Positions 40,823-57,605 of a DNA stretch of 64,000 nt are shown here, piece after piece. How positions within the stretch are numbered: position 1 is the first letter of the stretch; the number at the start of each line of letters is the position of its first letter. The notes beneath the pieces are model-generated. The model was not told the DNA's origin. It saw only the letters and a list, made by a program, of their open reading frames with translations, and made no database searches. This stretch comes from Escherichia phage A4. Position numbers and translations under genes: made by a program. The DNA lies in sequence record ON286972. One strand, 5' to 3'.

Positions 40823-40839
40823 TTGAAGTATTTATAGGT

Positions 40840-40867: not shown

Positions 40868-40919
40868 ATTAGCGATGGCACACGGATTGTGCCTATTGGT
40901 CATTACATGGAGAGTTACA

Positions 40920-41759: not shown

Positions 41760-42777
41760 TAAAGCAATTACATTCACTGATATTCATTTAGGATTAAAGA
41801 ATAACAGTAAGCAGCACAACGAAGATTGTTTGAACTTCATTAAATTTATGATTGATGAAGCCAAAAAGAAAGGTATTAAAGTATGTGTGTTTATGGGAGA
41901 TTACTTCCATAACCGCAGCAACATTAATATTCAAACATTAAACTATGGTTTACAAATTCTCCAATTACTAAATGACAACTTTGATAAAGTTTACTTCTTA
42001 GTTGGGAACCATGACATGTATCATAAAAACAAACGCGATATTACAAGTATTAATATGGCACAAGTTTATGAAAACATCGAGTTCATTAATGAAATTACTA
42101 CAATCGACGATTGTACTTTCATTCCATTTATGATTGAAGATGAATACAAAATGCTACCTAAATTACAAAGCAAATATGTATTTGGTCATCTTGAATTACC
42201 TGGATATTTGCTTAACAAAATGGTAGAAATGCCAGATCATGGCAAAGAGACTGAAGGTTCTTTTGGTGGTTGTGAGTATGTTTTTAGTGGGCATTTCCAT
42301 AAACGACAATCAAAACTCACATCCAAAGGAACTCGTGTCATTTATACTGGTAACTGTTTCCCTCATAACTTCTCAGACACATGGGATGATGCTAGAGGTG
42401 TTATGATTCTTGAACACGGTTCAGAACCAACATTCAAATCATGGGATGCTGCACCGAAATACAGAACATTTACTTTGTCAGAGCTACTAACTGATCCAAG
42501 TTATTACTTACAAGATAACTCTATCTCGAAAGTTCAGGTTGATATTCCAATCACAACTGATGAGATTAGTTTTATTCGTGATACTTTTACTAAACTTTAT
42601 AATATTCGTGAGTTTAACGTTGTTACAAGTAAACAAAGTATCAAAGAACTTTTGGAAGAAGGTGAACACTTTGAAAGTACTGAATCAGTTGATGAGATAG
42701 TTTTACAACAAATCATGGAAATTGATTCTCCAATGTTCGACAAGAATCTACTAATACAAATCTATAGATCATTATAA
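41746..42777 (+). CDS. gp47: recombination endonuclease subunit gp47 (Mre11/SbcD-like)
   Basis: Metallophosphoesterase motifs FTDIHLG, GDYFHNR, VGNHD, GHFH; start at ATG 41746 after AAGGA; overlaps gene 55 end by 14 nt. Confidence 0.85.
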   Translation: MALFDKAITFTDIHLGLKNNSKQHNEDCLNFIKFMIDEAKKKGIKVCVFMGDYFHNRSNINIQTLNYGLQILQLLNDNFDKVYFLVGNHDMYHKNKRDITSINMAQVYENIEFINEITTIDDCTFIPFMIEDEYKMLPKLQSKYVFGHLELPGYLLNKMVEMPDHGKETEGSFGGCEYVFSGHFHKRQSKLTSKGTRVIYTGNCFPHNFSDTWDDARGVMILEHGSEPTFKSWDAAPKYRTFTLSELLTDPSYYLQDNSISKVQVDIPITTDEISFIRDTFTKLYNIREFNVVTSKQSIKELLEEGEHFESTESVDEIVLQQIMEIDSPMFDKNLLIQIYRSL

Positions 42778-42786
42778 GGGACACGG

Positions 42787-44934
42787 ATGTTAAACATTAC
42801 ACGTATAACAATGAGGAATTTCTTTTCCTTTGGTAATGCACCACAAGTTATTGATTTAAATGGTGCTGACATATCTTTAGTACTCGGTCAAAACAATGAT
42901 GCTGTCATTGAAGGTGGTGATAGTTCTGGTCGTCGTAACGGTGTAGGTAAAAGTGCAATTATTCAAGGTCTTGTTTTTGGACTATTTGGAAAAAGTATTG
43001 GTAACGATATTAAAATTCCAAACTTAGTTAATAAAACAAATGCTAAAAATTGTGAAGTTACCGTTGAGTTCGAGAAAGACGGTATACAATACCTTGTTGA
43101 GCGTGGGCGTAGTCCCACATATTTCAATTTCATCACTCTAGGTCAGGACAATAAAGTTCTCGATGAATCAAGAGGTGAAAAGAAAGATACACAAGAAGAT
43201 CTAAATGAAATTCTCGGAATCTCTCAATTACTTTTTGAGCACATTGTAGTACTGAATGCTAACGTTGAACCTTTCCTTGCTCTTTCTTCACAGAAACAAC
43301 GTGATATGATTGAAGAGCTATTAGGTATTACCCAATTAACAGAGAAAGCTGAACTGTTAAAGGATATGAACAAAGAGTCAAAACGTTTAGCTGACCAAGA
43401 GAAGTTTAAAATTGAAACAGTTGCAGCAAGTAATGAACGCATTCAACGCAGCATTGAAACCTTACAGGAACAGGCTAATAAGTTTGAAATTGATAAGGCT
43501 AATAGAGTGCAAAAACTAAAAAGTGAATTGGAAGTATACAGTACTTTTGTATTTTCTGATTTATATGCTGCTGCTGAAGAGAAAGAAGAAGCACTTCTAC
43601 ACATCTCTAAACGTTTACAACTCGAACGTAGAGTTCAAGAACTTGCAGTGAAATATGATCAGTACGATAGAGAACTAGCCACTAATAAAAATATTATTCA
43701 GCATAGTATCGATAAATTAAAAACTATTGATATTGAATCTGAATTAAAAAACCATGAAGAAATGGAACTGTGGAAACAACTAGAATCTATCTTAAAAGAT
43801 AATCAGTTGCAAAAGAATTTCAAAACACAGAAACTAAATTCACTAAATCTTTCGTTGAATGCTCATATTAAATCTCTTACAGCAGAAGAAGAGAAATTAA
43901 AATCAGTTGAGGATAGTAAATGTCCACTTTGTTTATCAGAGTTGGAGCATAATGAGCATGGTAATGGTATAAAAGATAAGATTAATGATACTATTCGTCT
44001 AATCAGAGAAAATATAAGTAAGGTTGAGTTGGAAATTGCAACACTATCAGATGAAATCAATGCAATTGAGATATTTGATATGCCCCCTAAACCTGTAACT
44101 TTCTATAATACCCTTACCGAAGCCCAAATGCATGACCATAAGCTACAAGAACTTATTAAAAAGAGTGAGGAAGAACAAATTAACATCTACCGTGATGAAC
44201 TAATGTCTTCTTATGAGGCTCTTGATGCATTAGAAGTAAAGGAAGTTCCAGATGCGTTGAATAAATCAGAAGTTAAAGAGTTAGAAATGACTTTTAACTC
44301 ACTTACTCAACAACTTGAACACGAATTGAACACAACTAATACGTTTATTAGTCAGATTAATACTTTAACAACCGATTCGTTGGTTCCTATTGATTATACT
44401 GACTTCAATAACCTTGAAAAATTGGCTAATCACCAAGATTTCTTAGTTAAACTATTGCTCAATAAGGATAGTTATGTTCGTAAACGTATCATTGAACAAA
44501 ATATCTCATATTTGAACTCCAGATTGCAGTATTATATTGATATGTGTGGTTCAGAACACAATGTGGTCTTCTTGAATGACCTTAGTGTTGAGATTGAGAA
44601 GAGTGGGCAGTACTTTGACTATAAACAATTGAGTCGTGGAGAACGAACACGTGTTAATATTGCATTATCATGTGCTTTCCGCGATACTTATGAATCATTA
44701 TATCAAAGTATTAATATTCTTATCATAGATGAGATGATAGATCAGGGTCTTGATTCAAGTGGTGTTCTAAGAGTATGGTCAATCTTCCAGGATATGGCTG
44801 CTGTACGTGGTAAAAACGTATATGCAATATCTCACAGAGAAGAATTACTATCTAAAACAGAAAAAATCCTTAAAGTGGTTAAAGAAGACGGTTTCAGTAC
44901 TGTTGAATATGCTACTCTTGATGATATTTTCTAA
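42787..44934 (+). CDS. gp46: recombination endonuclease ATPase gp46 (Rad50/SbcC-like)
   Basis: Walker A GRRNGVGKSAI, zinc hook CPLC, long coiled coils, signature SRGERTRVNIAL, Walker B ILIIDEMIDQGLD; aligns with T4 gp46. Confidence 0.9.
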   Translation: MLNITRITMRNFFSFGNAPQVIDLNGADISLVLGQNNDAVIEGGDSSGRRNGVGKSAIIQGLVFGLFGKSIGNDIKIPNLVNKTNAKNCEVTVEFEKDGIQYLVERGRSPTYFNFITLGQDNKVLDESRGEKKDTQEDLNEILGISQLLFEHIVVLNANVEPFLALSSQKQRDMIEELLGITQLTEKAELLKDMNKESKRLADQEKFKIETVAASNERIQRSIETLQEQANKFEIDKANRVQKLKSELEVYSTFVFSDLYAAAEEKEEALLHISKRLQLERRVQELAVKYDQYDRELATNKNIIQHSIDKLKTIDIESELKNHEEMELWKQLESILKDNQLQKNFKTQKLNSLNLSLNAHIKSLTAEEEKLKSVEDSKCPLCLSELEHNEHGNGIKDKINDTIRLIRENISKVELEIATLSDEINAIEIFDMPPKPVTFYNTLTEAQMHDHKLQELIKKSEEEQINIYRDELMSSYEALDALEVKEVPDALNKSEVKELEMTFNSLTQQLEHELNTTNTFISQINTLTTDSLVPIDYTDFNNLEKLANHQDFLVKLLLNKDSYVRKRIIEQNISYLNSRLQYYIDMCGSEHNVVFLNDLSVEIEKSGQYFDYKQLSRGERTRVNIALSCAFRDTYESLYQSINILIIDEMIDQGLDSSGVLRVWSIFQDMAAVRGKNVYAISHREELLSKTEKILKVVKEDGFSTVEYATLDDIF

Positions 44935-44947
44935 TATAATGAATAAA

Positions 44948-44970
44948 GGGAGCCTTAGCTCCCTTTTTTT
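44948..44970 (+). terminator. rho-independent terminator after gene 46
   Basis: GGGAGC-ctta-GCTCCC then TTTTTTT; the convergent endo VII-like stop codon lies inside the hairpin. Confidence 0.65.
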
Positions 44971-45446
44971 ATATCTAACATGTTTAATTTGCCGTCCTTA
45001 ATAAGCTTCCTAGCCTGTTTTACACGAGCAGTAGTGTTGCTACCAGGGACAACTCCTAACCCTTCCAGAATCGCGTTTTGCTGCGTTGCTGGGAGCCTTT
45101 TAAACTTATTAACATCCACAGTTAATGCCGTGTGATGAATCACTTGCTCTTCTGGTGGAATATTATTGTTCTTTTCAAGATAATCTGCCAGATTTCTTAG
45201 TACTTCATGAAGAGGTTTATCAGTTAAATGACGCAAGTATCGATTGAAAGAGTTCTGCACCTTACCTTCCCATGCGTTAACCTCATTTTGTAGAACTTCT
45301 CTACAATGCTGGTTTTCGAAGTGATAGTGGTCGAGTACTGGTTTCTTAATCGGTTCCTTGATTATAGGATCAATACCTTTTTGCTTTTTTAATAATTCAT
45401 TTCTGTACGTAGCAGCTTCCTTACTATCTTTAAGTCTTCGTTTCAT
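44955..45446 (-). CDS. endonuclease VII-like nuclease (T4 gp49-like) lacking zinc-binding cysteines
   Basis: LDHYHFENQ...LQNEVNAWEGK...SFNRYL...YLEKN aligns with T4 endo VII LDHDHELNG...LCNLCNAAEGQ...KFNRSG...YLKSD; catalytic D/H/H/N/E kept, the four Cys ligands are absent. Confidence 0.55.
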   Translation of the reverse strand: MKRRLKDSKEAATYRNELLKKQKGIDPIIKEPIKKPVLDHYHFENQHCREVLQNEVNAWEGKVQNSFNRYLRHLTDKPLHEVLRNLADYLEKNNNIPPEEQVIHHTALTVDVNKFKRLPATQQNAILEGLGVVPGSNTTARVKQARKLIKDGKLNMLDIKKGS

Positions 45447-45469
45447 AATGTGCCTTAGATCTAAGTTAG

Positions 45470-45486
45470 TTTATGAAATATTTATG
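45470..45486 (-). promoter_or_regulatory. late-promoter-like motif before the endo VII-like gene
   Basis: Minus-strand CATAAATATTTCATAAA ~25 nt upstream of ATG 45446. Confidence 0.4.
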
Positions 45487-45543
45487 AAATACATTCCTAA
45501 GAAATTTTTAAGTACTTTTTTTATAAAAAAGATTAGATATTTT

Positions 45544-45571
45544 GAGACACTTTTAAATTGCGTGCTATAAT
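45544..45571 (+). promoter_or_regulatory. sigma70-like promoter firing into the ORF-free region
   Basis: GAGACA-N16-TGcTATAAT; same spacing as the clpA and gene 55 promoters. Confidence 0.45.
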
Positions 45572-45577
45572 GTTTCA

Positions 45578-46064
45578 TGTAGTACTGACAATCCTGTTGA
45601 ATGCAGAAATGCATATAAATTAGAACCTAATCCACTCGAAAATGTAGAGGGTAGATGAGCAGTTCAACAGTGCGATGAGCAAAAGAAACCCGTTAGATGT
45701 GGGCATATTATGAACCCCTCACGGCGACACGGCTCAATAAAGAACTCCGATAAGCATACAGAGAGTTCCTCGATAGTTCCTCGATAGATGTATAAGGATC
45801 GCACCTTACCAGATTTGCTAAGGGAGTTTGATGATTCATTTCATTAAACAGCCTGAAGTTTGATTGTATAGACTTTCAGGTGAGTGTCAGGATGTTTAAG
45901 ACTGACGACCGTTGCACATGACTGCGATAGAGAGAAACAGAGCAACCCGCTTTCGTTCTTAATATTTTTACAATATAATTACGTTTAAATTTTAAGAAAT
46001 TCGCAATACAATAATACCGATGCCATCAGCGTCAAGAAACAGAGACTTAATTGTCTCTTTTTTA
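45578..46064 (+). ncRNA. candidate non-coding transcript (promoter to terminator), family unknown
   Basis: Bounded by the promoter at 45544-45571 and the hairpin/T-run at 46041-46064; contains an 8-bp stem-loop (CCTGAAGT...ACTTTCAGG), a tandem 11-bp repeat and only very short ORFs. Confidence 0.3.
46041..46064 (+). terminator. candidate terminator inside the ORF-free region
   Basis: AGAGAC-ttaatt-GTCTCT then TTTTTT. Confidence 0.5.
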
Positions 46065-46149
46065 TTATCTTCATTCCCCTGCGGGGGGATGAAATATCCT
46101 CAACAAATCCCGTCAAGTATTAAATCATTTAAAGTTCTTTATAATTATA

Positions 46150-46245
46150 TTAAAATGAATATGAGTTAACGTAGTTAACGAATATTCTTCAGCTAACGAA
46201 TGAAATGAGTTAGATGAGTTCAATATAAATCAAATGAATTCCTTC
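46150..46245. repeat. cluster of short direct repeats (iteron-like)
   Basis: GTTAACG x2, TAACGAAT x2, ATGAGTT x3 within ~90 bp, followed by an A-tract. Confidence 0.4.
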
Positions 46246-46307
46246 AAGAATAAATCTTTTAAGATCATAATTTCTTTCATCTACTTTGTAAGTAAAAATC
46301 CAAAAAA

Positions 46308-46341
46308 CAAAAACAAAAAAAAACCAGCAACAATGTGCTGG
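46308..46341 (-). terminator. rho-independent terminator
   Basis: Minus-strand CCAGCA...UGCUGG hairpin followed by a run of nine U. Confidence 0.6.
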
Positions 46342-46354
46342 CTTCTTATGAGTA

Positions 46355-46516
46355 TTAGTGCTTCTCGTTCATCTTCTTTACTTTCTTATTGTATGCCTTA
46401 ATAAGCATATCTCTGTCATTTACTGGCATATTAAGTAGAGTTGCATAATCGACATTATCTACATAAACAGCAGCATCCATAAGGGCATTTTTAATATCTG
46501 ATTTATTCAACTCCAT
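46355..46516 (-). CDS. small hypothetical protein (53 aa)
   Basis: Short ORF (MELNKSDIKNALMDAAVYVDNVDYATLL...) between the zinc-ribbon gene and a terminator; weak Shine-Dalgarno; below ORF-track size cut-off. Confidence 0.2.
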   Translation of the reverse strand: MELNKSDIKNALMDAAVYVDNVDYATLLNMPVNDRDMLIKAYNKKVKKMNEKH

Positions 46517-46533
46517 ATCATCCAGAAGTTCTT

Positions 46534-47421
46534 TTATTTCTTCTGGGTTTGAGAAGAGAAGCTGAGATCGAAAAAATGAGTAGGGTCATACTTTAATCCA
46601 GTAAGTTCCCATTGATGCTGACATTCAATACATTCAACTTCCATTGTATGCGATACACCAATCTCTAGTACTTCATCCATTTTCTCTCTGATTTGCTTGA
46701 TCACTTCTTTTGATTGAGTACCTAACCATTCACTTATGAATTTCTTATCTGATACTTCATCACCATCAGGAGTAATTACTTTATCAATAACTCCAGCAAT
46801 CATATCAAAGTTTAGTTGTGCCATGTTTTCAAATACTTCAGAAAACATTTTAATTTTATCATCTTCTGAAATATCAATAGTACTCTCAAGATACTTAGTT
46901 TTTTGTTGTTCAGCTAACATACGTTGAGAAAACTCTGAATATTCTTTCCAAGTAAGTGGTCTGAACTGAAGAGACAAACCATTATTAAGATCAATACTAG
47001 GAATTTCAGTAAAAGATTCTGCCGTTTCCAATAGATAAGAAAGATCACGTTCAAAACGGCCTTCTTTGGAACATGATGGACATACGACATTGACATCATA
47101 ACTGGTTTCTTTGGATGCTAACTTGATAGCAATAAGAATTTGCTCAACATCATTGACAAAAAGCTCATCTGCGTTTAGAATGTTTGGTACACAGTTTTCG
47201 ATAACAGATGACACTGCACTACCATTGAGTAACATATCAGGTGTATTGAGCATCATTTCGTCACGAGCACTACGAGCACAGACACCACATTTAATGCCTT
47301 TGCTCCCCAATACACCATCTTTGTACTGGAAAATGTTGTTAGTGACGAGTTTAGTACTAATTTCTTCGATTTTTGTGTATTTTGCTAACGGGTTCATTGA
47401 CATAATACTTTCTCCATGCAA
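46534..47421 (-). CDS. Cys-rich (zinc-ribbon) hypothetical protein
   Basis: 295-aa ORF with CGVC, CPSC and CIEC pairs suggesting two zinc ribbons; function unassigned. Confidence 0.5.
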   Translation of the reverse strand: MHGESIMSMNPLAKYTKIEEISTKLVTNNIFQYKDGVLGSKGIKCGVCARSARDEMMLNTPDMLLNGSAVSSVIENCVPNILNADELFVNDVEQILIAIKLASKETSYDVNVVCPSCSKEGRFERDLSYLLETAESFTEIPSIDLNNGLSLQFRPLTWKEYSEFSQRMLAEQQKTKYLESTIDISEDDKIKMFSEVFENMAQLNFDMIAGVIDKVITPDGDEVSDKKFISEWLGTQSKEVIKQIREKMDEVLEIGVSHTMEVECIECQHQWELTGLKYDPTHFFDLSFSSQTQKK

Positions 47422-47480
47422 TAATTATGAAAGTATTTATGTATGTTCAAAACTTCAAAATCACCCAAGAGGAATATTTT

Positions 47481-47969
47481 ATGATAAAGACAACAATCAA
47501 ACGTTTGTTCCAAGCCTTTGGTATCTTTATGGTTGTTATGTTAGTAATCGGTATGATTGTTCCGAAAAGCGAAACATCCACAACTAAAGAATCAGAGTAC
47601 AAAGAGCAGTTAACTAAACGTGAATTACCAACACAAATTGTTAGCTACAAAGGTAAACTGTATAACGAAGATCCTAACGAGGAACATTTAAAATGGACAT
47701 TCATCCAATTCACTGTTAACGGTGATGAAGTACTGATGGGTCAGACATATGAATCATGGAGTTATATTGGAAGTACTGCATCTGGATATGATGTTTATTA
47801 CAACATTAACGACTTCACTTATACTGTCGGCGGTGTTCAAAAGACAGTAAAACTTGAAGGTACATTGTATGTTAATAGAGAAACAAACTCTATCATATTC
47901 AGTAATAAAAATGTTAGTGACGGTTCACCAAAACGAACCTATAGTGCAGTACTGGAACCACGATACTAA
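47481..47969 (+). CDS. membrane-anchored hypothetical protein
   Basis: Start set at ATG 47481 (AAGAGGA Shine-Dalgarno); one N-terminal hydrophobic helix FGIFMVVMLVIGMIV then soluble domain; terminator follows. Confidence 0.45.
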   Translation: MIKTTIKRLFQAFGIFMVVMLVIGMIVPKSETSTTKESEYKEQLTKRELPTQIVSYKGKLYNEDPNEEHLKWTFIQFTVNGDEVLMGQTYESWSYIGSTASGYDVYYNINDFTYTVGGVQKTVKLEGTLYVNRETNSIIFSNKNVSDGSPKRTYSAVLEPRY

Positions 47970-47989
47970 AATAATTAAATAAAATCAAA

Positions 47990-48024
47990 GCCCATATGGT
48001 TAATATCCATGTGGGCTTTTTTTA
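47990..48024 (+). terminator. rho-independent terminator
   Basis: 10-bp stem GCCCATATGG/CCATGTGGGC (one wobble) then TTTTTTT. Confidence 0.7.
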
Positions 48025-48037
48025 TACATTGCATTTC

Positions 48038-48053
48038 ATAAATATTCCTATAT
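48038..48053 (+). promoter_or_regulatory. late-promoter-like motif
   Basis: ATAAATATTCCTATAT ~25 nt before ATG 48077. Confidence 0.45.
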
Positions 48054-48076
48054 AAACTTAATGTAGGAATTATTAT

Positions 48077-50248
48077 ATGGCTGTAAACAACAGTGATTAC
48101 TTACTACAACAGATAGTGAATAAATCTAATGATACCGTAGATGGTCTTTCAGCTATACGTGAATTGTTAGCAGAAAGTTTAAAGAATGATAAAAAGAAAA
48201 ATAATGGTGGTGGTAACCCATCACCTGGCGATTCATCTGGACCAAGTGGTGGTGGACGCGGTTCTCGTGGTAATTCATCCTCTATGGGTAAAATGTTCAG
48301 AGCAATGTCCAGCGAAATGACAAACGTTGGTAAAACAATGATGAGTACTTCAGCGAATGTCAGTACTGTCATTAACTCAATGGGTATGAGTGCATCATCC
48401 GTAGCTGGCTCTCTTTCTATGATCCCTGGTCCTGTAGGAATGGCAGCATCAGCATTTAAAATGGTTGCTGATGTAGGGATGGCAGTATATAACGTAATGA
48501 ACGCCCAGCTTGAAATGTACAACAGAGTCAACAGTGCGGGTGTTTCTCTTGCTGAAGGTTATGGCTCTTTGCTAAAAGGTTCAGGTTCAGCGTTAATGTC
48601 TATGGATCTATTCAGTGAAGTAATATCAACTCATAGTGATGTTATTGCACAATTGGATGGTTCGTATGGAGATGGCGTTAAGGAATTTGGTAAATTGTTA
48701 GGTGTAGTTCAAAATGCCCAAGATAAACTTGGCCTATATGGTATGTCACAAAAAACTTTATCAGATTTAGCAGCACGTAACATCAAAATTCAAAAACAAT
48801 TTGGTGGTGCAGAACTAGTAAGGAATATAAACCAAGCACAAAGTACCCAAGAGTTAATTAAAACTATGTCTACTTTTAGTAAGACAATGGGTATGTCAAT
48901 TGATGAATTACTTAAAAAGACACAATCACTTGATAAATCATTTGATGCAAGAATACTAAAAACTACACTAAACAACTGGGTGGGACTATCAGAAGAAACC
49001 GCAACATTAACCACTAAAGCACTTACCGAAGCGGCAGGTGGTATGGGGGATATGGGTACTGATTTCCTAAGATTGATTAGCCACAGAATATCAATTGGTG
49101 GTGTTCCTGATGATTTATTATCTCCAATGATTAGCGAATTCGCTGACCTTGGTGAGAACATGGTTAAGTCTGGTGTAACCGATGCAAAAGCTATACGTGA
49201 AGCACAATATCAGTGGGTGAAGAAAAACAGAAAACGCGTTGAAGCAGATATGGAAGATATGCAACGAAGTCAAAACTTCACCGCTGCCGCATTTGCTAAG
49301 CAAATGTTAGATATGGAAGCTGCAATTAATGCTGACAAAAATCGACCAGCAGATAAAATCGCAGAATTTACTGATAGATTGAACAGATGGGTCAGTACTG
49401 AATTTGTTGCTCCATTCAATAAAATGTATGCTGATGTTCAAAATAATGTTGTTGATTATTTGACAGCAATTGCAGATCGTACCGATAGTGCATGGGGATT
49501 TATTTGGGAATTGGCTAAAGATGGATTTGGGTTAGTTCCAATATTCAAGGATGCGGTTTCTTATGTTGACCGTATTGGTAACGAATTTGTATTATGGCTT
49601 GAGGGATTGGGTTCTGACATATTTGGGGACACATATACTCAAGTTTCAAAAGCATTCGATGACTTCATGAAGAATCTCATGGATTTACCTGGAAAGTTAT
49701 GGGATAAAGTAAAAGGATGGTTTGGTTCAGATGATAAATCTGAAAAACAAGAAGAACCTAAAAAGAAAATAGAAGAGAAAGCTACATCTTTCTGGGATTC
49801 TATTGGTAATTCAGTAGACGATTTCACAAAATTTGTAGAAGAAAAAACACTTGACTTCCAAAAATGGAAATCTTCTAAATTATATACACCACCTAGACCA
49901 TTTAACGTAGATAATGCATATCGAGTCTTGGGCTATGAACCACCTAAAAACGTCCAGACTACAGTAATGCCAAATACACCACCTATGATGGAATTAACTC
50001 GTAAACATTATGATAAATCCGCATGGAAACCTGGTGAAGCACCATTCCCACCAGAACCAGATCGTGATATAAAATCTCTGGTAACGCCTCAAAACGGAAC
50101 TATAAATAATGACATGAGTTCAGAAGAGATCAAAGAAATTTTTAAACGTCTAGCAGAAATGAGTGAACAATCACTCGCAGCAACAAATCAGACAAATAAT
50201 TACTTAAGAACAATTTCTGAAAATACACAAGGTGAACGCAATAGTTAA
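48077..50248 (+). CDS. hypothetical virion protein (Gly/Ser/Met-rich N-terminus)
   Basis: 723-aa ORF immediately upstream of portal; late promoter motif upstream. Confidence 0.4.
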   Translation: MAVNNSDYLLQQIVNKSNDTVDGLSAIRELLAESLKNDKKKNNGGGNPSPGDSSGPSGGGRGSRGNSSSMGKMFRAMSSEMTNVGKTMMSTSANVSTVINSMGMSASSVAGSLSMIPGPVGMAASAFKMVADVGMAVYNVMNAQLEMYNRVNSAGVSLAEGYGSLLKGSGSALMSMDLFSEVISTHSDVIAQLDGSYGDGVKEFGKLLGVVQNAQDKLGLYGMSQKTLSDLAARNIKIQKQFGGAELVRNINQAQSTQELIKTMSTFSKTMGMSIDELLKKTQSLDKSFDARILKTTLNNWVGLSEETATLTTKALTEAAGGMGDMGTDFLRLISHRISIGGVPDDLLSPMISEFADLGENMVKSGVTDAKAIREAQYQWVKKNRKRVEADMEDMQRSQNFTAAAFAKQMLDMEAAINADKNRPADKIAEFTDRLNRWVSTEFVAPFNKMYADVQNNVVDYLTAIADRTDSAWGFIWELAKDGFGLVPIFKDAVSYVDRIGNEFVLWLEGLGSDIFGDTYTQVSKAFDDFMKNLMDLPGKLWDKVKGWFGSDDKSEKQEEPKKKIEEKATSFWDSIGNSVDDFTKFVEEKTLDFQKWKSSKLYTPPRPFNVDNAYRVLGYEPPKNVQTTVMPNTPPMMELTRKHYDKSAWKPGEAPFPPEPDRDIKSLVTPQNGTINNDMSSEEIKEIFKRLAEMSEQSLAATNQTNNYLRTISENTQGERNS

Positions 50249-50263
50249 AGGATTAATAATATA

Positions 50264-51991
50264 ATGAGTTGGAAACGTCACATGACTATGGGAAGATCAA
50301 AATTATCGATCGTACCCCAGCAATCCAATAGTAATAAATCCCCTGGGAGCAAAACTAATTTTGCTTCCTACCTTCCGGTGGTTTATAACGGATTGGCAAA
50401 CCGTACTGACCGTTACAGTCAATACGACCAGATGGATCAAGACCCAGAAATCAGAACGGCACTAAACATTATTGCTGACTTTTGTACACAGAGTACTGAA
50501 GATTTTGGTCTACCATATAAAATTAAATATAAAGATAATATTGGTGATACGGAAGTAACCACTATTGAAGACCGCTTAGATGCATGGACTGAACAGAATG
50601 ATTTCAAAACAAGAATGTATGAAATTGTTCGCGGACTACTTAAGTACGGTGACCAGTTCTTTATTCGTGACCCAGAAACATTCGACTGGTATTGGGTTAA
50701 CCCAAAAAATGTCGAACAGGTTTTTGTTAACGAAGCAACCGGAAAAACACCAGTAATATACTATATAAGAGATGTATCTCTTAACCTTAAAGATAAAGTT
50801 TTTAGTAACCTTCAAATTGGTTTTGATAAAGCTTCATATCCAGGGGCAATACCGAACACACTAGGTGGTGGTGGTCAAGTTGCCGCAGGTGGTGCATCTG
50901 GTTTTACCAACCAAGGTAATAGTTCCGATCCATTTAATACAAATGGTCGTATGGATATTATACCAGTTGGTGCAGAACACGTAATTCATCTGTCACTAAA
51001 TACAGGACAAGATGGAGTTTGGCCTTTCGGTACAAGTATACTAGAAGATGTCTTTAAAGTCTACAAACAAAAAGAACTTCTTGAAGATAGTATTATTATC
51101 TATCGTGTACAACGTGCACCAGAACGCCGCGTATTCAAAATTGATGTTGGTGATATGCAAACTAACCAAGCAATGGCATATGTTGAACGCTTTAAAAATG
51201 AAATCCATCAAAGACGTATACCTTCTAATAAAGGTGGCAGTACTTCATTGATGGATGCAGCATACAACCCACTAAGTATATTGGAAGACTATTTCTTCCC
51301 ACAAACTTCCGAAGGTCGTGGTTCAGATGTTCAAACACTACCTGGTGGTGATAACTTAGGTCAGATTGATGACTTGAGATATTTTAATAATAAACTAATT
51401 CGTGGCTTACAAATCCCAGCATCTTACCTTCCACAAGGTCCAGATGACGGCGGCGTATCACTATTTGGTGATGGTGCAACTCAAGCAATGGCAAGTGAAT
51501 TACGTTTTAATAACCAATGTATGCGTTATCAGCGTCTAGTTGCAAAAATTTTCGATGCCGAATTTAAGCGTTTTATGGTAAAAAATGGATATAACATTAG
51601 TACTTCTTCTTTTGAAGTTATTATGAATCCACCAATTAACTTGGCTTCTTATCGTAAAGCAGAATTGGATGCGAAACTCATTAATACATATATGCCACTT
51701 AATGAATTACCATATATGGCGAAACAAACTATCCTTGAAAAAATGGGCTTCTCCCAGAAAGATATTGTTAAAAATGAACAGCTATGGTTACAAGAGAATC
51801 CACAAGATTCTAATGCACCACAACAAGAAGATGTTGCTGGATTACAGTCAGTTGGTATCGACTCTCCTAATGACCCAGGTATGGACCTAGGATTAGATGC
51901 AGATGGTAATCTGGAAAGTGCTGACGCTGAATACCAAAATCAGCAAGGAAATGGCTCTTTTGACCCTAATAATTTAGGTGAATCTTTTTAA
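50264..51991 (+). CDS. gp20: portal vertex protein gp20
   Basis: IIYRVQRAPERRVFKIDVGDM...TLPGGDNLGQIDDLRYF aligns with T4 gp20 [21 protein letters not shown]...TLPGADNTGNMEDIRWF. Confidence 0.9.
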   Translation: MSWKRHMTMGRSKLSIVPQQSNSNKSPGSKTNFASYLPVVYNGLANRTDRYSQYDQMDQDPEIRTALNIIADFCTQSTEDFGLPYKIKYKDNIGDTEVTTIEDRLDAWTEQNDFKTRMYEIVRGLLKYGDQFFIRDPETFDWYWVNPKNVEQVFVNEATGKTPVIYYIRDVSLNLKDKVFSNLQIGFDKASYPGAIPNTLGGGGQVAAGGASGFTNQGNSSDPFNTNGRMDIIPVGAEHVIHLSLNTGQDGVWPFGTSILEDVFKVYKQKELLEDSIIIYRVQRAPERRVFKIDVGDMQTNQAMAYVERFKNEIHQRRIPSNKGGSTSLMDAAYNPLSILEDYFFPQTSEGRGSDVQTLPGGDNLGQIDDLRYFNNKLIRGLQIPASYLPQGPDDGGVSLFGDGATQAMASELRFNNQCMRYQRLVAKIFDAEFKRFMVKNGYNISTSSFEVIMNPPINLASYRKAELDAKLINTYMPLNELPYMAKQTILEKMGFSQKDIVKNEQLWLQENPQDSNAPQQEDVAGLQSVGIDSPNDPGMDLGLDADGNLESADAEYQNQQGNGSFDPNNLGESF

Positions 51992-52061
51992 TAATAAATA
52001 ACAATGTATATAAATGAAGGGAACGTAAAAAATTCCCTTCATATTAATGCAAGGAGATAGC

Positions 52062-52292
52062 ATGTTAAAGGATATCTTTGAATCGAATTCTGATTCTATG
52101 TACGACCCTGAAGATGATCAGACCGTATATAAAATTACGGATTCTAGAAAACCCAAACTCACATTGCAAGTACTTAACAATCTGCGTAAGTACAGAGAAT
52201 TTAAAGCAAATGAAGAACAGCGTAGAAATAATGTAGTCGCTGTTGTTTATGCTCCAGCACCAGCACCTGATGCTAATGCCGGAATGATGTAA
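52062..52292 (+). CDS. small head-module protein (possible prohead core component)
   Basis: 76-aa ORF between portal and acidic protein; start at ATG 52062 five nt after AAGGAG. Confidence 0.4.
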   Translation: MLKDIFESNSDSMYDPEDDQTVYKITDSRKPKLTLQVLNNLRKYREFKANEEQRRNNVVAVVYAPAPAPDANAGMM

Positions 52293-52333
52293 TACCTTAA
52301 AAATCGCTCTTTTTAAAGCTTTTAAAAATGACG

Positions 52334-52363
52334 AATTTTTTCAGTACTAAATAATATCATACT
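52334..52363 (+). promoter_or_regulatory. conserved 30-nt leader element before the acidic head protein gene
   Basis: AATTTTTTCAGTACTAAATAATATCATACT; near-identical to 55102-55133. Confidence 0.45.
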
Positions 52364-52396
52364 TTATAGGAATTAAATATATCTTTGGAGGATATA

Positions 52397-53239
52397 ATGG
52401 CTAATTTAAAACTACTACAAGAAGCAATCGAAGCTTTTGCTAACGGCGAGCAAGATGTAGCTGATAAAAAAATGCGTAAGTACTTTGTTGAACAAGCACA
52501 AGAAATTAACAAAGAACTAGAAGAAAGCATGGACGACGAAGAATGCTGCGATGAAGACGACAAAGAAGAGAAACTAGAAGAAGACTTCGACGTTTCCCCA
52601 GATGCTGGTCTTAATAGTCAAATCGAATATTCTCTTGGTGAAGAAGACAAGAGTGCTGAAGATGATATCGAATTCCAAGCTGGTGAAGAAGATTCTGAAG
52701 GTGAAGTTGGTGCAGAAGGTGAAGAAGTCCCTTCCGAAGACCAATGGGCGTCCATTCAAGATGCTTTCCGTGGCCTACAACAAATGTTTGATGAAATCTC
52801 CGGCGAAGGTGAAGTTGACCTAGACGCTGAAGAACCAGTAGGTGGCGAAGAAGAAGTTGATCTAGAAGTTGGTTCCGAAGACGGCGGTGATGATTTCGCT
52901 GATGTTCAATTCGGTGATGAAAAAGTTGGTGAGTCTTTCAAACTAAAAGCAGTTGCTGATGTTGATAAGAAAGAAAAAGCTGGTGCAAATACTAAATCCC
53001 CAGTTGCTTCCCAAGCTAAATCTCCAGTACAAGGCGTAGCTCCAGTAAAAATCGCTAAAAACTCAACTCCAGTAGTTGATGACAAATTTGATGGCGTAGA
53101 TACTGAATCTCACACCGTACCAGAAGATATGAATAATGTTATGGATAGCGGCAAAGGCGTAATGAAAGACGTTAAGAAAGTAACCACTGGTTCTTCTAAG
53201 TCTCGTTCCCCACTACCAAAATCACAACCAAAATTCTAA
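52397..53239 (+). CDS. highly acidic prohead core / scaffold-like protein
   Basis: Long Asp/Glu runs (EEDSEGEVGAEGEEVPSED...); start at ATG 52397 after GGAGG (track start 52385 is TTG inside the Shine-Dalgarno). Confidence 0.5.
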   Translation: MANLKLLQEAIEAFANGEQDVADKKMRKYFVEQAQEINKELEESMDDEECCDEDDKEEKLEEDFDVSPDAGLNSQIEYSLGEEDKSAEDDIEFQAGEEDSEGEVGAEGEEVPSEDQWASIQDAFRGLQQMFDEISGEGEVDLDAEEPVGGEEEVDLEVGSEDGGDDFADVQFGDEKVGESFKLKAVADVDKKEKAGANTKSPVASQAKSPVQGVAPVKIAKNSTPVVDDKFDGVDTESHTVPEDMNNVMDSGKGVMKDVKKVTTGSSKSRSPLPKSQPKF

Positions 53240-53269
53240 TAATAAATAAAACAAAGAAAGGAGATCATT

Positions 53270-53890
53270 ATGAGTATGATTCGTGAATGGTCTTCATTCA
53301 ATGATTCACAAATTGTTATGGAACATCGTGATAATGGGCTGGGAGGTCGCGATTGCTATCTTCGTGGTATCGCAATTCAAGCTGACCAGCGTAATTTGAA
53401 CGAAAGAATTTACCCTTTAGCCGAAATTGCTAAAGCTGTTAATAATATGGCTCAACGTTTGGCTAAAGGCGAAAGCATTCTAGTAGAATGTGACCACCCT
53501 GAAACTTTGACTATTAACCTTGACCGTGTAGCAGCAATGATTACTAAAGTCTGGATGGAAGGTTCTAATGGGATGGCAGAAATCAAATTACTTGATACTG
53601 CACATGGTCAAAATATTCGTAAAATGCTCGAAGCAGGTGTAAAACTTGGTGTAAGTTCTCGTGGTTCCGGTAACGTTGATTATAATGGAATAGTTTCTGA
53701 TTTCGAAATTATCACAATTGATATTGTTGCTCAACCTAGTGCTCCCGAAGCGTACCCAACAGCGGTATTTGAGTCTTTGATGAGTAAGTACGGCTCACCT
53801 TGCAATGGACCTAAAAAAATCACAGAATCTAAATCAGTAAATAAACTAGATTCTGAAATTTATGATTTTTTCAAGAAATTAAAAGGTTAA
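53270..53890 (+). CDS. gp21: prohead core protease gp21
   Basis: NERIYPLAEIAKAV, VECDHPE, GVSSRGSGN, VAQPSAPEAYPT align with T4 gp21 KRLYPKRILEKAV, GELNHP, GVSSRGLGS, VWGPSAPDAWVTP. Confidence 0.9.
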   Translation: MSMIREWSSFNDSQIVMEHRDNGLGGRDCYLRGIAIQADQRNLNERIYPLAEIAKAVNNMAQRLAKGESILVECDHPETLTINLDRVAAMITKVWMEGSNGMAEIKLLDTAHGQNIRKMLEAGVKLGVSSRGSGNVDYNGIVSDFEIITIDIVAQPSAPEAYPTAVFESLMSKYGSPCNGPKKITESKSVNKLDSEIYDFFKKLKG

Positions 53891-53902
53891 CATTTTAAAA
53901 TT

Positions 53903-53918
53903 ATAAATATTTGTATAT
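53903..53918 (+). promoter_or_regulatory. late-promoter-like motif before scaffold gene
   Basis: ATAAATATTTGTATAT, then ATTTCAGTACT leader and AAAGGAG Shine-Dalgarno. Confidence 0.5.
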
Positions 53919-53958
53919 TTGAAGTACAGATATTTCAGTACTTAAAGGAGAGAACAGA

Positions 53959-55077
53959 ATGTCTAAATTAGAAAAGCTTCTAAAAGAATCATCTCTTTCT
54001 GATGAAGCAAAACAGCTAATTCAGGAAGCATGGAATGAAGAAAAGAACACACTAGCCGCTGAAATGCGTGAAGAAATGAAAGGCCGTTATAAACAAGACC
54101 TAGCTGAACTAACAGAAGGTCTTAACACTATGGTTACTCAAGTTATCGCTGAAGAAATGGGTGCAGTATATGACGAGAAAAAACGTCTCGTTGAAGACCG
54201 CGTTACCCTCCGTAAAACTCTTGGTAACTTCTCTGAATTCGCTAATTCAGTACTAGCTGAAGAAGTTAAACAAATGCGTAACGAACGTAAACTAGTTCAA
54301 GAAAGCCTCGGTAAATTCGTTAATTTCTCTAACGGTATCCTAGCTGAAGAACTAAAAGAATTCCACAGCGAAAAACGTCAACTAGTAGAAGCTCGTGTAA
54401 AACTACTTGCTGAAGGTTCTCGTCAAATTGCAGAAGCACGTAATAACTTTATCAAACGTACCTCTGAAAGTGCTGCTAAATATATTGCAGAAACCACTCA
54501 GAAAAATCTTTACGCTTTGAAACAAGATCTTGCTGAAGCTAAACAAAATATGTTCGGTCGTAAAATCTTTGAAGCATTTGCTCAAGAATTTAATACCAAA
54601 CAATTTAATGAGAATTCACTACTTCGTTCTTTGACTGAATCAATCAAATCTAAAGAAGATGAGATTGCTCAAGTTAAACAAGAACTAAATGAATCTGTTA
54701 ACGCAGTTAAAGAAGTTCAATCAAAACTACGTATCATGGAAGATACACAGGCACGCAATGCGATTATGTCTGAATTGGTTAAGCCTTTGACTAGTCAACA
54801 AAAACAAATTATGGAATCCCTTCTAGCTGCTTCTCCAACAGAAAAGCTTAAAGAAGATTTCAGCAAGTACCATAAGTCTGTACTTAACGGTACTAAAGTA
54901 AATGAATCTGCTACCACTCGTCAAGCAGTTCAACCTTCAGCGAAGAAAACAACCCTAGCAGAAGGTAAAGTAATCACTGGCAACCGTCAGGCTATTGTTG
55001 AAAGCGAAGAAATGACCGCTGACGATATGGCATTCCTAAAAGAACTCGACGTTCTTTCTGGTATCAATAAAAAATAA
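53959..55077 (+). CDS. gp22: prohead scaffold protein (at the gp22 position)
   Basis: 372-aa charged protein with coiled-coil character, between protease and capsid genes; late promoter motif upstream. Confidence 0.6.
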   Translation: MSKLEKLLKESSLSDEAKQLIQEAWNEEKNTLAAEMREEMKGRYKQDLAELTEGLNTMVTQVIAEEMGAVYDEKKRLVEDRVTLRKTLGNFSEFANSVLAEEVKQMRNERKLVQESLGKFVNFSNGILAEELKEFHSEKRQLVEARVKLLAEGSRQIAEARNNFIKRTSESAAKYIAETTQKNLYALKQDLAEAKQNMFGRKIFEAFAQEFNTKQFNENSLLRSLTESIKSKEDEIAQVKQELNESVNAVKEVQSKLRIMEDTQARNAIMSELVKPLTSQQKQIMESLLAASPTEKLKEDFSKYHKSVLNGTKVNESATTRQAVQPSAKKTTLAEGKVITGNRQAIVESEEMTADDMAFLKELDVLSGINKK

Positions 55078-55101
55078 ACATTTTAAAGCATTTTAATAAT
55101 C

Positions 55102-55133
55102 AATTTTTTCAGTACCATAAATAATAACATACT
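55102..55133 (+). promoter_or_regulatory. conserved leader element before major capsid gene
   Basis: AATTTTTTCAGTACCATAAATAATAACATACT containing CATAAATA. Confidence 0.5.
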
Positions 55134-55169
55134 GAAAAACGAATATAACATCTTTAAGGAGATAATATA

Positions 55170-56345
55170 ATGTCACAACTACTAAATGAATCCAAATGGG
55201 TAGCAGTTAAAGAGAAACTAGTTGAAGGTCTTCAAGGTACTCGTAAATCCGTAATGGAAACCGTTCTTGATAACCATCGTAAAGTTATGCTACAAGAATC
55301 TGCAACCGCTGGTGCAACTTCTGCTGGTAACATCGCTACTCTAAACAAAGTGATTCTACCAATTATGCGTCGTGTAATGCCAACCGTTATCGCTAACGAA
55401 ATCATCGGTGTTCAACCAATGACTGGCCCAGTTGGTCAAATCCACACTCTACGTGTTCAATACGCTGACAACGCACCAGGTGTTGTAGCTGGCGAAGAAA
55501 TGCTATCTCCATTCAAGATTGCTAAATCTTACACTGGTGAGCTAAACTCTGACAACAGCAACCCACAAGCTGCTCCTACTAGCCAACTAGAAGGTACTAT
55601 GGGTCGTCGCGTTAACATCCGTATCCTACGTGAAACTGTTGAAGCGAAATCTCGTCGTCTATCTGCACGTTGGACTGTTGAATCTGCACAAGATGCACAA
55701 TCTCAACATGGTATCGACGTTGAAGCTGAACTAATGGCTGCTATCGCACAAGAAGTTACCGTTGAAATCGACCAAGAACTACTAAGCCGTCTACGTGCTC
55801 TACCAGGTGCTGCTGCTGTAACTTATGACCAATCTAAAGTAACTGGCGTTGCTACTTTCGTTGGTGATGAGCACGCTGCTCTAGCTACCCTAATCAACCG
55901 TCAAGCGAACGAAGTTGCTCGTCGTACCAAACGTGGTGCTGCGAACTGGGCTGTTGTTTCCCCAACCGCTCTAACTATTCTACAATCTGCAACTACTTCT
56001 AGCTTTGCACGTACTACTGAAGGTACTTTTGAAGCACCAACTAACGTTAAATTCGTTGGTACTCTAAACAGCACCATGCGTATCTTTGTTGATACCTACG
56101 CAAGTGACGTAGAAGATATTCTAATTGGTTATAAAGGTAATGCAGAAACTGATGCTGGTGTATTCTATTGCCCATACATCCCACTAATGGCATCTGGTAC
56201 TGTTATGGACCCTAACACTGGAGAACTCGTTACAACTTTCTTAACCAGATACGGGTATGTTCAGTTGACCGATAGCACCAGTTCACTAGGTAACGCTGCG
56301 GACTACTACAGCAAAATCGCTATCAAAAACGTTACTTTCATGTAA
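55170..56345 (+). CDS. gp23: major capsid protein gp23-like
   Basis: IANEIIGVQPMTGPVGQ, VEAKSRRLSARWTVESAQDAQSQHGIDVEAEL and GYKGNAETDAGVFYCPYIPL align with T4 gp23; strong terminator follows. 391 aa versus 521 in T4. Confidence 0.9.
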   Translation: MSQLLNESKWVAVKEKLVEGLQGTRKSVMETVLDNHRKVMLQESATAGATSAGNIATLNKVILPIMRRVMPTVIANEIIGVQPMTGPVGQIHTLRVQYADNAPGVVAGEEMLSPFKIAKSYTGELNSDNSNPQAAPTSQLEGTMGRRVNIRILRETVEAKSRRLSARWTVESAQDAQSQHGIDVEAELMAAIAQEVTVEIDQELLSRLRALPGAAAVTYDQSKVTGVATFVGDEHAALATLINRQANEVARRTKRGAANWAVVSPTALTILQSATTSSFARTTEGTFEAPTNVKFVGTLNSTMRIFVDTYASDVEDILIGYKGNAETDAGVFYCPYIPLMASGTVMDPNTGELVTTFLTRYGYVQLTDSTSSLGNAADYYSKIAIKNVTFM

Positions 56346-56368
56346 TAATAAAGAATTTAAATATACTA

Positions 56369-56398
56369 GGGACTCTTCGGAGTCCCTTTTCTTTTTTT
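56369..56398 (+). terminator. strong rho-independent terminator after major capsid gene
   Basis: GGGACTC-ttcg-GAGTCCC then TTTTCTTTTTTT. Confidence 0.8.
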
Positions 56399-56474
56399 CA
56401 GAAAAAAAGCTTGACAAGTAGATTTTAATTATATATAATTACCACATACCAAAAATCACAAAGAGACAAATAAA

Positions 56475-57581: not shown

Positions 57582-57605
57582 ACACTAAGCAGGGAAGCTT
57601 TCACT

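Follow-up and report, generated by a model that had tools for sequence, protein, structure and literature searches.

A probable tail tape measure protein encoded beside the portal gene in a RaK2/121Q-like jumbo phage

RaK2/121Q/PA5oct-like jumbo phages matter for phage therapy and for structural work. Their virions contain a large protein whose family is collected in PHROG 14121 under the label "virion structural protein". Members are RaK2 ORF088/gp447, CBB_251, GAP32_244, phAPEC6 gp231, PA5oct gp335 and the orthologues of PBECO4/121Q. By mass spectrometry of virions, the CBB protein was identified with 29 peptides (50% coverage) and the phAPEC6 protein with one peptide (1.4% coverage); the PA5oct protein was likewise detected in virions, and the records of RaK2 and GAP32 label theirs virion proteins. 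Several GenBank records already name family members putative tape measure protein; other database labels are "major capsid protein" and "hypothetical protein", and one record reads "pore-forming tail tip protein". The table of T4 homologues in the CBB paper holds no entry for gp29 (PMC5259590), and a tape measure protein goes unmentioned in the papers on phAPEC6 and PA5oct. In Atu_ph07, a "tape measure protein gp701" has been named (PMC6102473); by GenBank gene counting this is apparently a Gly-rich protein of 205 aa, which is neither a family member nor a credible ruler.

The window, i.e. the whole stretch of 64,000 nucleotides that was analysed (Escherichia phage A4, record ON286972), stems from a new RaK2/121Q/PBECO4-like jumbo myovirus. 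Its family member is encoded on the plus strand at 48077..50248 (ATG start, 723 aa). These are exactly the limits given in an earlier sequence-only reading, which had also placed the protein directly before the portal; downstream of it lies the T4-type portal gene (50264..51991; PF07230, E 5e-114). With 2.2 kb in DNA of 37% G+C and a full-length match to PHROG 14121 (E 5.6e-246, residues 1-723 against profile positions 1-745), the gene far exceeds a chance ORF. The same PHROG is matched by 15 of 15 aligned homologues. Orthologues were found by tblastn in 73 jumbo-phage records, and a repetition at E <= 5 yielded none beyond these. The PHROG 14121 proteins resemble the A4 protein in full-length homology, a size of ~700-740 aa, domain layout, position between a gp26-like gene and the portal gene, and the late promoter motif; in A4, an ORF of 180 aa that has a promoter and a terminator of its own is inserted between the gp26-like gene and the family member.

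No clear resemblance to a terminase, a sheath or any other standard protein, the outcome that would have refuted the sequence-only reading, came to light: Pfam and NCBIfam gave no meaningful match, PF25671 (T4 gp29) did not surface in Pfam scans relaxed to E <= 10, and no homology to gp29 was detected. The family itself is known, however. The protein is thus not an orphan, and its assignment to a known family of jumbo-phage virion proteins is a useful annotation rather than the description of a new kind of system. Among the roles considered for it by the sequence-only reading (ejected internal protein, tape-measure-like protein, head decoration), the second is favoured by its linkage to baseplate hub genes, its helicity, the tape measure and lysin segments of its relatives and the unprocessed state of the CBB orthologue. 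The protein is probably the tail tape measure protein of this RaK2/121Q-like jumbo myovirus and the functional counterpart of T4 gp29. Such an assignment makes the gene testable and corrects the inconsistent database labels mentioned above.

The protein lacks Cys and had been divided by the sequence-only reading into a Gly/Ser/Met-rich N-terminal third and a helical C-terminal part. The composition of residues 1-241 (Ser 14.9%, Gly 12.4%, Met 7.5%) agrees with the former description, but true Gly/Ser low complexity is confined to residues 41-72 (Gly 34%, Ser 25%). Confidence in the AlphaFold2 model is low (mean pLDDT 48); a Foldseek search of the PDB gave generic helical proteins only, with no fold match. 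DSSP applied to this model assigns helix nearly throughout, i.e. to most of residues 2-548, to 571-597 and to 682-722, so the N-terminal third appears helical as well, whereas the C-terminal part is interrupted by coil at ~549-570 and 598-681, the latter Pro-rich and poorly conserved.

The best-conserved segments include the ~40 residues at each end. Residues 1-40 (48077..48196) comprise two conserved helices (MA..SDYLLQQ...AIRELLAE), a putative docking end on the side of the tube terminator. A Gly/Ser/Asn/Pro low-complexity linker follows (residues 41-72, 48197..48292), differing in sequence and length among relatives. Residues 73-190 (48293..48646) form a conserved, moderately hydrophobic Gly/Ala/Ser/Met-rich helical segment of glycine-zipper character, a candidate for membrane insertion; over residues 73-241, which are rich in Ser, Gly, Ala, Met and Val, hydrophobicity is modest, with a maximum Kyte-Doolittle 19-residue average of 1.26. 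One relative (P0082) shows a weak match to the C19orf12 glycine-zipper family. Residues 191-548 (48647..49720) constitute a long helical core, and residues 73-548 are the part shared with the most distant relatives (profile positions ~100-430). The variable stretch of about 549-681 (49721..50119), with many indels and partly Pro-rich coil, is followed by the conserved C-terminal helix (residues 682-723, 50120..50245), which ends in ...NNYLRTISENTQGERNS and is the putative hub-docking end.

The most constant neighbour of the family is a gp26-like baseplate hub gene (PF12322), located in the window at 46534..47421 on the minus strand and divergent from the family member. It adjoins the family member in 12 of the 12 contexts examined, among them the window, phAPEC6, CBB, RaK2, PA5oct and six metagenomic contigs. 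In the window and in the four named phages, the family member lies between the divergent gp26-like gene and the downstream portal gene, and in most genomes it is co-oriented with the portal and head-morphogenesis genes, 16 nt before them. This portal linkage breaks in two lineages, while the linkage to gp26/gp27 hub genes persists: in Vibrio phage 2.275.O, the gp27-like gene, the family member and the gp26-like gene stand in this order and in one orientation, the head block occupying the opposite strand, and in contig L013 the head block is inverted and the link to the portal is lost. In a further contig (L008), a gp27-like gene stands directly upstream of the pair of family member and gp26-like gene. 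The gp27-like hub gene of the window (37588..39738, minus strand, 716 aa) has a stop codon overlapping the start of the gp5-like spike-lysozyme gene. Its AlphaFold2 model matches T4 gp27 in Foldseek (1k28_D, E 3.6e-5; 2z6b_D, E 1.9e-5), and further matches are the hubs of phi812 and P1 and VgrG. Being globular and gp27-like, this protein was discarded as a rival for the tape measure role; the C-terminus of the 723-aa protein is proposed to dock on it. The baseplate cluster of the window revealed no other tape measure candidate or long helical protein.

The portal linkage found in most genomes accords with another of the earlier proposals, an ejected internal protein. The protein would then reside inside the head on the portal axis, e.g. 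in the inner body of 121Q/phAPEC6, be co-expressed with the portal and enter the cell together with the DNA or ahead of it, as a channel former or, in relatives, as a carrier of lysin domains. Like the ejected internal proteins of other phages (T7 gp14-16; T4 internal proteins and Alt; the phiKZ inner body), it has head genes as neighbours, occurs in virions and is possibly delivered to the envelope. In most genomes, its gene stands directly before the portal, protease, scaffold and major capsid genes in the same orientation; phAPEC6 and 121Q have on their portal axis an inner body measuring 91 x 18 nm; relatives bear peptidoglycan hydrolase domains, as ejected internal proteins do; and PHROG places the family in the category "head and packaging", though this is tied to its generic label. 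Finally, conserved (L/I/M)-x-E motifs lie close to the two ends of the protein.

Several observations make this reading unlikely. The (L/I)-x-E motif is frequent in this helical protein (15 occurrences), and published peptide lists of the CBB orthologue, from the first two numbered gel fragments and with residues 1-28 not observed, span the conserved positions: TVLLDIEKNTK (aa 29-39) runs across the aligned N-terminal motif, and QIAENTEPPRNV covers I-A-E and extends to the last residue, so the C-terminus is intact in virions. The motifs were therefore rejected as protease sites. By contrast, no N-terminal peptides of the CBB major capsid protein occur in the gel fragment examined. The peptides across both motifs and the intact C-terminus indicate that the orthologue is not processed like the gp21-processed head-core proteins of T4, and the check for gp21 cleavage suggested by the sequence-only reading thus revealed no trimming at the conserved positions. 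In addition, hub linkage outlasts portal linkage, a single phAPEC6 peptide fits poorly with a bulk component of the inner body (copy number was not estimated from the CBB spectral counts, since these come from SDS-PAGE gel fragments), and no sequence similarity to any ejected internal protein family was found. Placing the protein in the head would also leave these contractile-tailed phages without a candidate for the tape measure. A version that dispenses with processing, i.e. an inner-body protein of 121Q/phAPEC6-type capsids that is co-expressed with the portal and leaves through the tail to form a conduit across the envelope, with the true tape measure encoded elsewhere, is regarded as quite improbable.

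The tape measure reading draws further support from distant relatives. The tape measure proteins of long-tailed phages (T5 pb2, lambda gpH, PHROGs 167/58/1272/4200/1535/9570) are, like the A4 protein, long and helical with Gly-rich hydrophobic segments. They share the kinds of lysozyme and peptidase modules with the relatives of the A4 protein, and these relatives match their PHROGs. The A4 protein itself differs in that it bears no lysin domain and shows no significant match to these models or to the curated tape measure models of Pfam, NCBIfam and PHROG; upstream of its gene, no frameshifted tail-assembly chaperone gene was seen. Its orthologues P0028-P0030 match the tape measure PHROGs 4200, 1535 and 4070 at marginal E-values of 2e-4 to 9e-4. 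For 57 distant relatives, the annotated secondary matches listed are all to tape measure, tail lysin, endolysin, peptidase or hub lysozyme; PHROG 167 is matched in six members (best E 3e-16), and PHROGs 9570 and 16823 at ~6e-26. Relatives in the same genomic position match tape measure PHROGs at 1e-10 to 1e-26, mostly in C-terminal extensions that are absent from the A4 protein, and one relative matches Pfam TMP_3 at 1.3e-4. In these same-position relatives, some of which are longer, domains of the types Phage_lysozyme2 (tail lysozyme), VanY and M15 peptidase occur and imply that the proteins are delivered to the wall of the cell.

In a BFVD fold search, the named matches after family members are nearly all tape measure or minor tail proteins, and they lie below the threshold. 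Two profile matches in the PDB were treated as unspecific: the "central fiber protein" of mycobacteriophage Douge (E 0.046) and the tape measure protein of the archaeal virus HFTV1 (E 8e-5), which is equalled by designed helical bundles. Since such bundles reach the score of a genuine tape measure protein and the matches of the orthologues are marginal, part of the similarity to tape measure proteins may reflect generic helical composition. Sequence and fold searches of the PDB returned no orthologous chain, and no high-resolution tail structure of a RaK2-like phage was found in the literature.

In T4, the tail length determinator gp29 shares with the A4 protein the proposed role, a comparable size (590 versus 723 aa) and a tight family length; it is also helical with an internal hydrophobic stretch, and its gene is linked to genes 26 and 27. 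The two differ in that no sequence or profile similarity was detected: hhalign showed no homology, with probabilities of 0.2% and 0.8% in two comparisons with the single gp29 sequence and of 5% in one with the alignment of the gp29 family. The T4 gene belongs to the cluster 51-27-28-29-48-54, with gene 26 divergent from 51-27-28-29, whereas the RaK2-like gene mostly stands beside the portal gene. The 20 closest aligned sequences of the A4 protein measure 688-743 aa even at ~25% identity, and this core family is as tight in length as the near-full-length members of the gp29 family (566-600 aa). At 0.15 nm per residue, 723 aa would span 108 nm, which is to be read as consistency only with the 94-nm, 25-ring sheath plus baseplate of phAPEC6. 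The T4 tail is similar, its sheath having 23 rings. The combination of hub linkage outlasting portal linkage, lysin-bearing relatives, an unprocessed virion protein, helicity, and conserved ends and length makes a tape measure the most likely reading.

The hub linkage also accords with a component of the hub or tail tip, with another protein setting the tail length. It could be a scaffold for hub assembly acting as partner of gp26 or a "pore-forming tail tip" protein that inserts into membranes. The constant association with gp26-like and gp27-like genes, the glycine-zipper-like segment and the corresponding label of one GenBank orthologue agree with this, and the range of 619 to 1411 aa among distant family members could reflect added domains instead of tail lengths. 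Yet the baseplate cluster of the window offers no alternative long helical protein, length is tightly conserved in the core clade, and in phages that have been characterised a single molecule usually serves both as pore former of the tail and as tape measure, e.g. T5 pb2; a hub component without ruler function is thus rather improbable. A head decoration or capsid-cementing protein, also put forward by the sequence-only reading, is very unlikely: the gene does sit in the head gene block and phAPEC6 capsids carry an outer protein network, but an all-helical 80-kDa protein with a low-complexity linker, hub-gene linkage and lysin domains in relatives contrasts with the compact fold of Hoc/Soc-like proteins, which are present in hundreds of copies per capsid and would be expected among the most abundant virion proteins rather than with one peptide in phAPEC6.

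As a tape measure protein, the A4 protein would be produced late from its own ATAAATA promoter. A strong intrinsic terminator hairpin (47987..48019, plus strand; 13-pair stem, then a T run) is predicted to end transcription of the inserted ORF upstream and to insulate the gene. Just after it, a T4-type late promoter, CATAAATA (core ATAAATA), is located at 48037..48044 on the plus strand, 33 nt before the ATG, in the extended context ATAAATATTCCTATATAA that is common to other late genes of the window. In the window, 18 of 20 occurrences of ATAAATA fall within 80 nt upstream of a gene start on the same strand, compared to ~2.5% expected, and a gene for a gp55-like late sigma factor is present at 40875..41759. 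The same motif is listed before the orthologous orf251 of CBB, with Porf_251 given as ATAAATACGACTAT (PMC5259590, supplementary file 2). The late promoter claimed from the letters alone is thereby supported. A perfect TATAAATA at 50101-50108, inside the region encoding residues 549-681 and 155 nt before the portal ATG, may serve as an internal promoter for the portal gene.

A few copies of the long helical protein would then assemble with the hub, consisting of the gp27-like protein, the gp5-like spike and the gp26-like factor, with the conserved C-terminal helix docked in it. The extended helical body is supposed to fill the lumen of the growing tail tube and to set the stop of polymerisation, where the conserved N-terminal helices would meet the tube-terminating proteins. 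During infection, the protein would leave the tube ahead of the DNA, and the Gly/Ala/Ser/Met-rich segment (~73-190) may insert into the envelope and help to form a conduit for the DNA. That the protein lies in the lumen of the tube, acts as a ruler and might form a pore is our inference from the features described above.

The gene had no megablast match among phages or complete E. coli genomes, and the nearest DNA is only ~70% identical. At the protein level, identity to the nearest named phages amounts to 57-58%, compared with 78-97% for the neighbouring genes except an acidic virion protein of 284 aa (63%), which marks the gene as the fastest-diverging one of an otherwise highly conserved head/hub block. 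This divergence would be of relevance if host defences sense tape measure proteins.

The ORF at 48077..50248 (+) starts with ATG and encodes a protein of 723 aa that is probably the tail tape measure protein of the phage, doing the job of gp29 in T4. New here is the argument for this role, not a new system: the protein is a fairly divergent addition to a known family, and the tape-measure idea is already present in some database records. The Gly/Ser/Met-rich N-terminal third described in the sequence-only reading is borne out (residues 1-241 comprise 14.9% Ser, 12.4% Gly, and 7.5% Met). Two conserved helices (residues 1-40) are followed by a low-complexity Gly/Ser/Asn/Pro linker (41-72), a conserved helical segment of moderate hydrophobicity in which Gly, Ala, Ser, and Met abound (73-190), and a long helical core extending to residue ~548. 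A poorly conserved, in part Pro-rich region (549-681) precedes a strongly conserved C-terminal helix (682-722) that ends in NNYLRTISENTQGERNS. A portal gene of the T4 type (PF07230, E 5e-114) lies 16 nt 3' of the ORF.

The window harbors genes for a gp55-like sigma factor, gp47/gp46-like nuclease subunits, and endonuclease VII, head genes (portal, gp21-like protease, gp23-like capsid protein), and tail genes (gp26-like hub protein; gp5-, gp25-, gp6-, gp53-, and gp15-like tail proteins). Because of this gene set and the tblastn matches, all to jumbo myoviruses of ~350 kb (PBECO4/121Q/phAPEC6, K64-1/RaK2, GAP32/CBB, and others), the window is assigned to the RaK2-like group. Megablast against phage records gave no DNA-level match; the phAPEC6 locus shows ~80% nucleotide identity over most of the block, and a protein 99% identical to the 723-aa protein is encoded on a 359-kb contig of a draft E. 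coli assembly. The 723-aa protein aligns over its whole length with PHROG 14121 ('virion structural protein'; E 5.6e-246), and Pfam and NCBIfam scans assigned it to no family. Its orthologues were detected in virions of CBB (CBB_251; 29 peptides, 50% coverage), phAPEC6 (gp231c, 79.7 kDa; 1 peptide), and PA5oct (gp335; ESI-MS/MS). Their database labels disagree, ranging from hypothetical, virion structural, putative tape measure, and tail length tape measure protein to pore-forming tail tip protein and major capsid protein, the last of which is wrong. The RaK2 orthologue, ORF088, carries the GenBank note 'similar to Enterococcus phage phiFL4A gp48 tail tape measure protein'.

When 1.84 billion representative proteins were searched exhaustively with the profile, 263 relatives came up (E <= 1e-3), many of them 650-1400 aa long, with profile positions ~100-430 as the common part. 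PHROG 14121 was matched by 54 of the 57 relatives sampled for a PHROG scan, and the secondary annotated matches listed for these 57 are all tape measure protein, tail-associated lysin, endolysin, peptidase, or hub lysozyme. Tape-measure PHROGs matched by relatives include 167, 1272, 58, 4200, 1535, 9570, 16823, 6090, 794, 973, and 1292 (best E 6e-26), and Pfam matches comprise Phage_lysozyme2 ('phage tail lysozyme'), VanY, M15 peptidases, and one match to TMP_3. Four relatives (P0082, P0101, P0102, and P0139) resemble the family in their N-terminal part and carry the tape-measure or lysin parts as C-terminal extensions; the genes of the first three occupy the orthologous position, with a gp26-like gene on one side and the portal gene on the other. 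The cell-wall hydrolase domains of positional orthologues imply delivery of the family to the periplasm. Three full-length orthologues (P0028-P0030) match tape-measure PHROGs directly and weakly (E 2e-4 to 9e-4). When the 723-aa protein is compared with BFVD by Foldseek, family members including the PA5oct structural protein rank top, and tape measure or minor tail proteins make up nearly all of the named matches after them, none of which reaches the threshold.

The tape-measure-like option of the earlier reading is favored by lysin-bearing relatives, linkage to hub genes, and lack of trimming in the CBB orthologue. No homology to gp29 emerged when profiles were compared with T4 gp29 and with its family PF25671 (probability 0.2-5%). 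The 723-aa protein itself matched no tape-measure model significantly either and is therefore at most an analogue of gp29 rather than a recognizable homologue. Foldseek against the PDB gave no match beyond generic helical proteins. The best natural PDB sequence match, the tape measure protein of the archaeal virus HFTV1 (9h4p, E 8e-5), is unspecific, given that designed helical bundles reach equal scores. A 'tail tape measure protein gp701' cited for Agrobacterium phage Atu_ph07 (MF403008; PMC6102473) is, by gene counting, apparently a 205-aa Gly-rich protein (37510..38127, GenBank label PE-PGRS) and implausibly short as a ruler. Within the 45 kb of Atu_ph07 examined, gp26-like and gp27-like genes are present and no PHROG 14121 family member was found.

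In the window, phAPEC6, CBB, RaK2, PA5oct, and four metagenomic contigs (L006, L007, L008, and L009), the gp26-like gene (-) is divergent from the family member (+), and the portal gene comes next. The rearranged lineages are the informative ones. Vibrio phage 2.275.O shows the co-oriented order NVP2275O_438, 437, and 436, where 438 is a homologue of the gp27-like ORF716 of the window (tblastn E 1e-86), 437 is the family member (E 1.5e-33 with the family's alignment profile), and 436 is gp26-like (PF12322); its portal, protease, and capsid genes lie on the opposite strand. Contig L013 retains the gp26-like/member pair, with an inverted head block on the other side of the gp26-like gene; an ORF716-like gene adjoins the pair in L008, and in L012 the baseplate cluster comes after the portal gene in place of the protease and capsid genes. 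What is conserved over long range is therefore the neighbourhood of gp27-like hub, family member, and gp26-like hub. This order corresponds to the hub-gene neighbourhood of T4, where gene 26 is divergent from genes 51-27-28-29, and the family member occupies the place of gp29. The portal gene of L008 (13775..15928) contains an intein, with PF14890 (Intein_splicing) between two Portal_T4 halves.

ORF716 itself (37588..39738, -) encodes a 716-aa 'virion structural protein' (PHROG 11190), labeled in databases as structural protein only, and lies upstream of the gp5-like spike-lysozyme gene, whose start overlaps its stop. Foldseek with an AlphaFold2 model (mean pLDDT 66) matched T4 gp27 (1k28_D, E 3.6e-5; 2z6b_D, E 1.9e-5), the phi812 hub (E 9.5e-7), the P1 baseplate hub, and VgrG, and a gp27/VgrG-like baseplate hub fold is predicted from this model.

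The gp21 protease cuts T4-type head-core proteins after (L/I)-x-E. Conserved in the family are (I/M)-x-E at residues 27-29, L-x-E at 31-33, and I-x-E at 713-715. The published CBB tables of virion-derived peptides of CBB_251, a protein recovered from fragments 01 and 02 of an SDS-PAGE gel, argue against cleavage by this protease, raised earlier as a check. The peptide TVLLDIEKNTK (residues 29-39) runs across the aligned N-terminal motif positions, and QIAENTEPPRNV (711-722) runs across I-A-E to the last residue; GGGGSGGNPFK (64-74) and many further internal peptides are listed, and the 28-residue N-terminal tryptic peptide was not observed. In the gel fragment examined, the first peptides of the CBB major capsid protein lie at residues ~60-77, as expected if it is processed. 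Virions thus contain the orthologue in essentially full-length form, a state that agrees with a tail protein built outside the prohead and speaks against a head-core protein of the T4 style. An ejected, unprocessed protein of the head or portal axis, which might belong to the inner body observed in phAPEC6 and 121Q, is unlikely, given that the portal link is broken in Vibrio phage 2.275.O and L013 and the hub-gene linkage is kept.

Family length is kept at 688-743 aa in the 20 closest sequences aligned, even at ~25% identity and with an indel-rich region; near-full-length members of the gp29 family likewise span 566-600 aa. A helix of 723 aa would extend over ~108 nm at 0.15 nm per residue, consistent with, but not decisive beside, the phAPEC6 sheath (94 nm, 25 rings, on the baseplate) and the CBB tail (123 nm with collar and baseplate). 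A hub or tail-tip protein that inserts into the membrane and is not the ruler is likewise improbable, and a head decoration protein very much so. At 57.8% aa identity to phAPEC6, the putative tape measure protein diverges more than any other protein of the block (39750..58295); an acidic 284-aa virion protein encoded between the portal and protease genes (63%) and a 53-aa ORF (70%) come next. Most neighbours are 78-97% identical (gp26-like 78%, portal 91%, capsid protein 97%).

The late promoter proposed for the gene is confirmed as CATAAATA at 48037-48044, 33 nt 5' of the ATG and preceded by a 13-pair terminator hairpin (47987-48019). Across the window, ATAAATA behaves as the late promoter core, with 18 of 20 occurrences preceding a gene start on the same strand by no more than 80 nt (~2.5% expected). 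Examples are 48038-48044, 53903-53909, 55117-55123, and 58298-58304 (+) and 40829-40835, 47434-47440, and 33951-33957 (-); ATAAATAtTtCcTATAta is a frequent 3' extension common to several baseplate and head genes. The gene of the gp55-like late sigma factor spans 40875..41759. In the CBB supplement (PMC5259590), the motif is given upstream of late genes including orf251, the orthologue, and the stretch of the promoter list from orf251 to orf256 has no entry for the portal gene, orf252. The 3' end of the 723-aa ORF contains TATAAATA at 50101..50108 (+), an octamer that matches the T4 late promoter perfectly and may serve the portal gene, whose ATG lies 155 nt downstream.

Between the gp26-like gene and the 723-aa ORF, a 180-aa ORF (47427..47969, +) is inserted, more likely starting at ATG 47481 (162 aa) after an AGAGGAA ribosome-binding site. 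It shows a hydrophobic N-terminal helix, a near-consensus sigma-70-type promoter (TTGACA-17-AATAAT, 47397-47425), and the hairpin at 47987-48019 as its own terminator. No counterpart was found at the same place in phAPEC6, CBB, or RaK2 and no match in PHROG or Pfam; it looks like a moron-type insertion. Directly 3' of the gp26-like gene lies the 53-aa ORF (46355..46516, -), followed by a terminator (46318-46347). Having positional counterparts in three phages (phAPEC6 gp233, 69 aa, 70% identical; CBB gp249; NVP2275O_435), it seems to travel with gp26. Between this ORF and the endonuclease VII gene, ~0.9 kb (45447..46354) holds no ORF > 55 aa, tRNA, or Rfam family. Identity to the equivalent gaps is 85.7% over 754 nt in phAPEC6 and 64.7% over 567 nt in CBB, so that the region is about as conserved as the surrounding coding DNA; it may be an unannotated RNA or DNA element.
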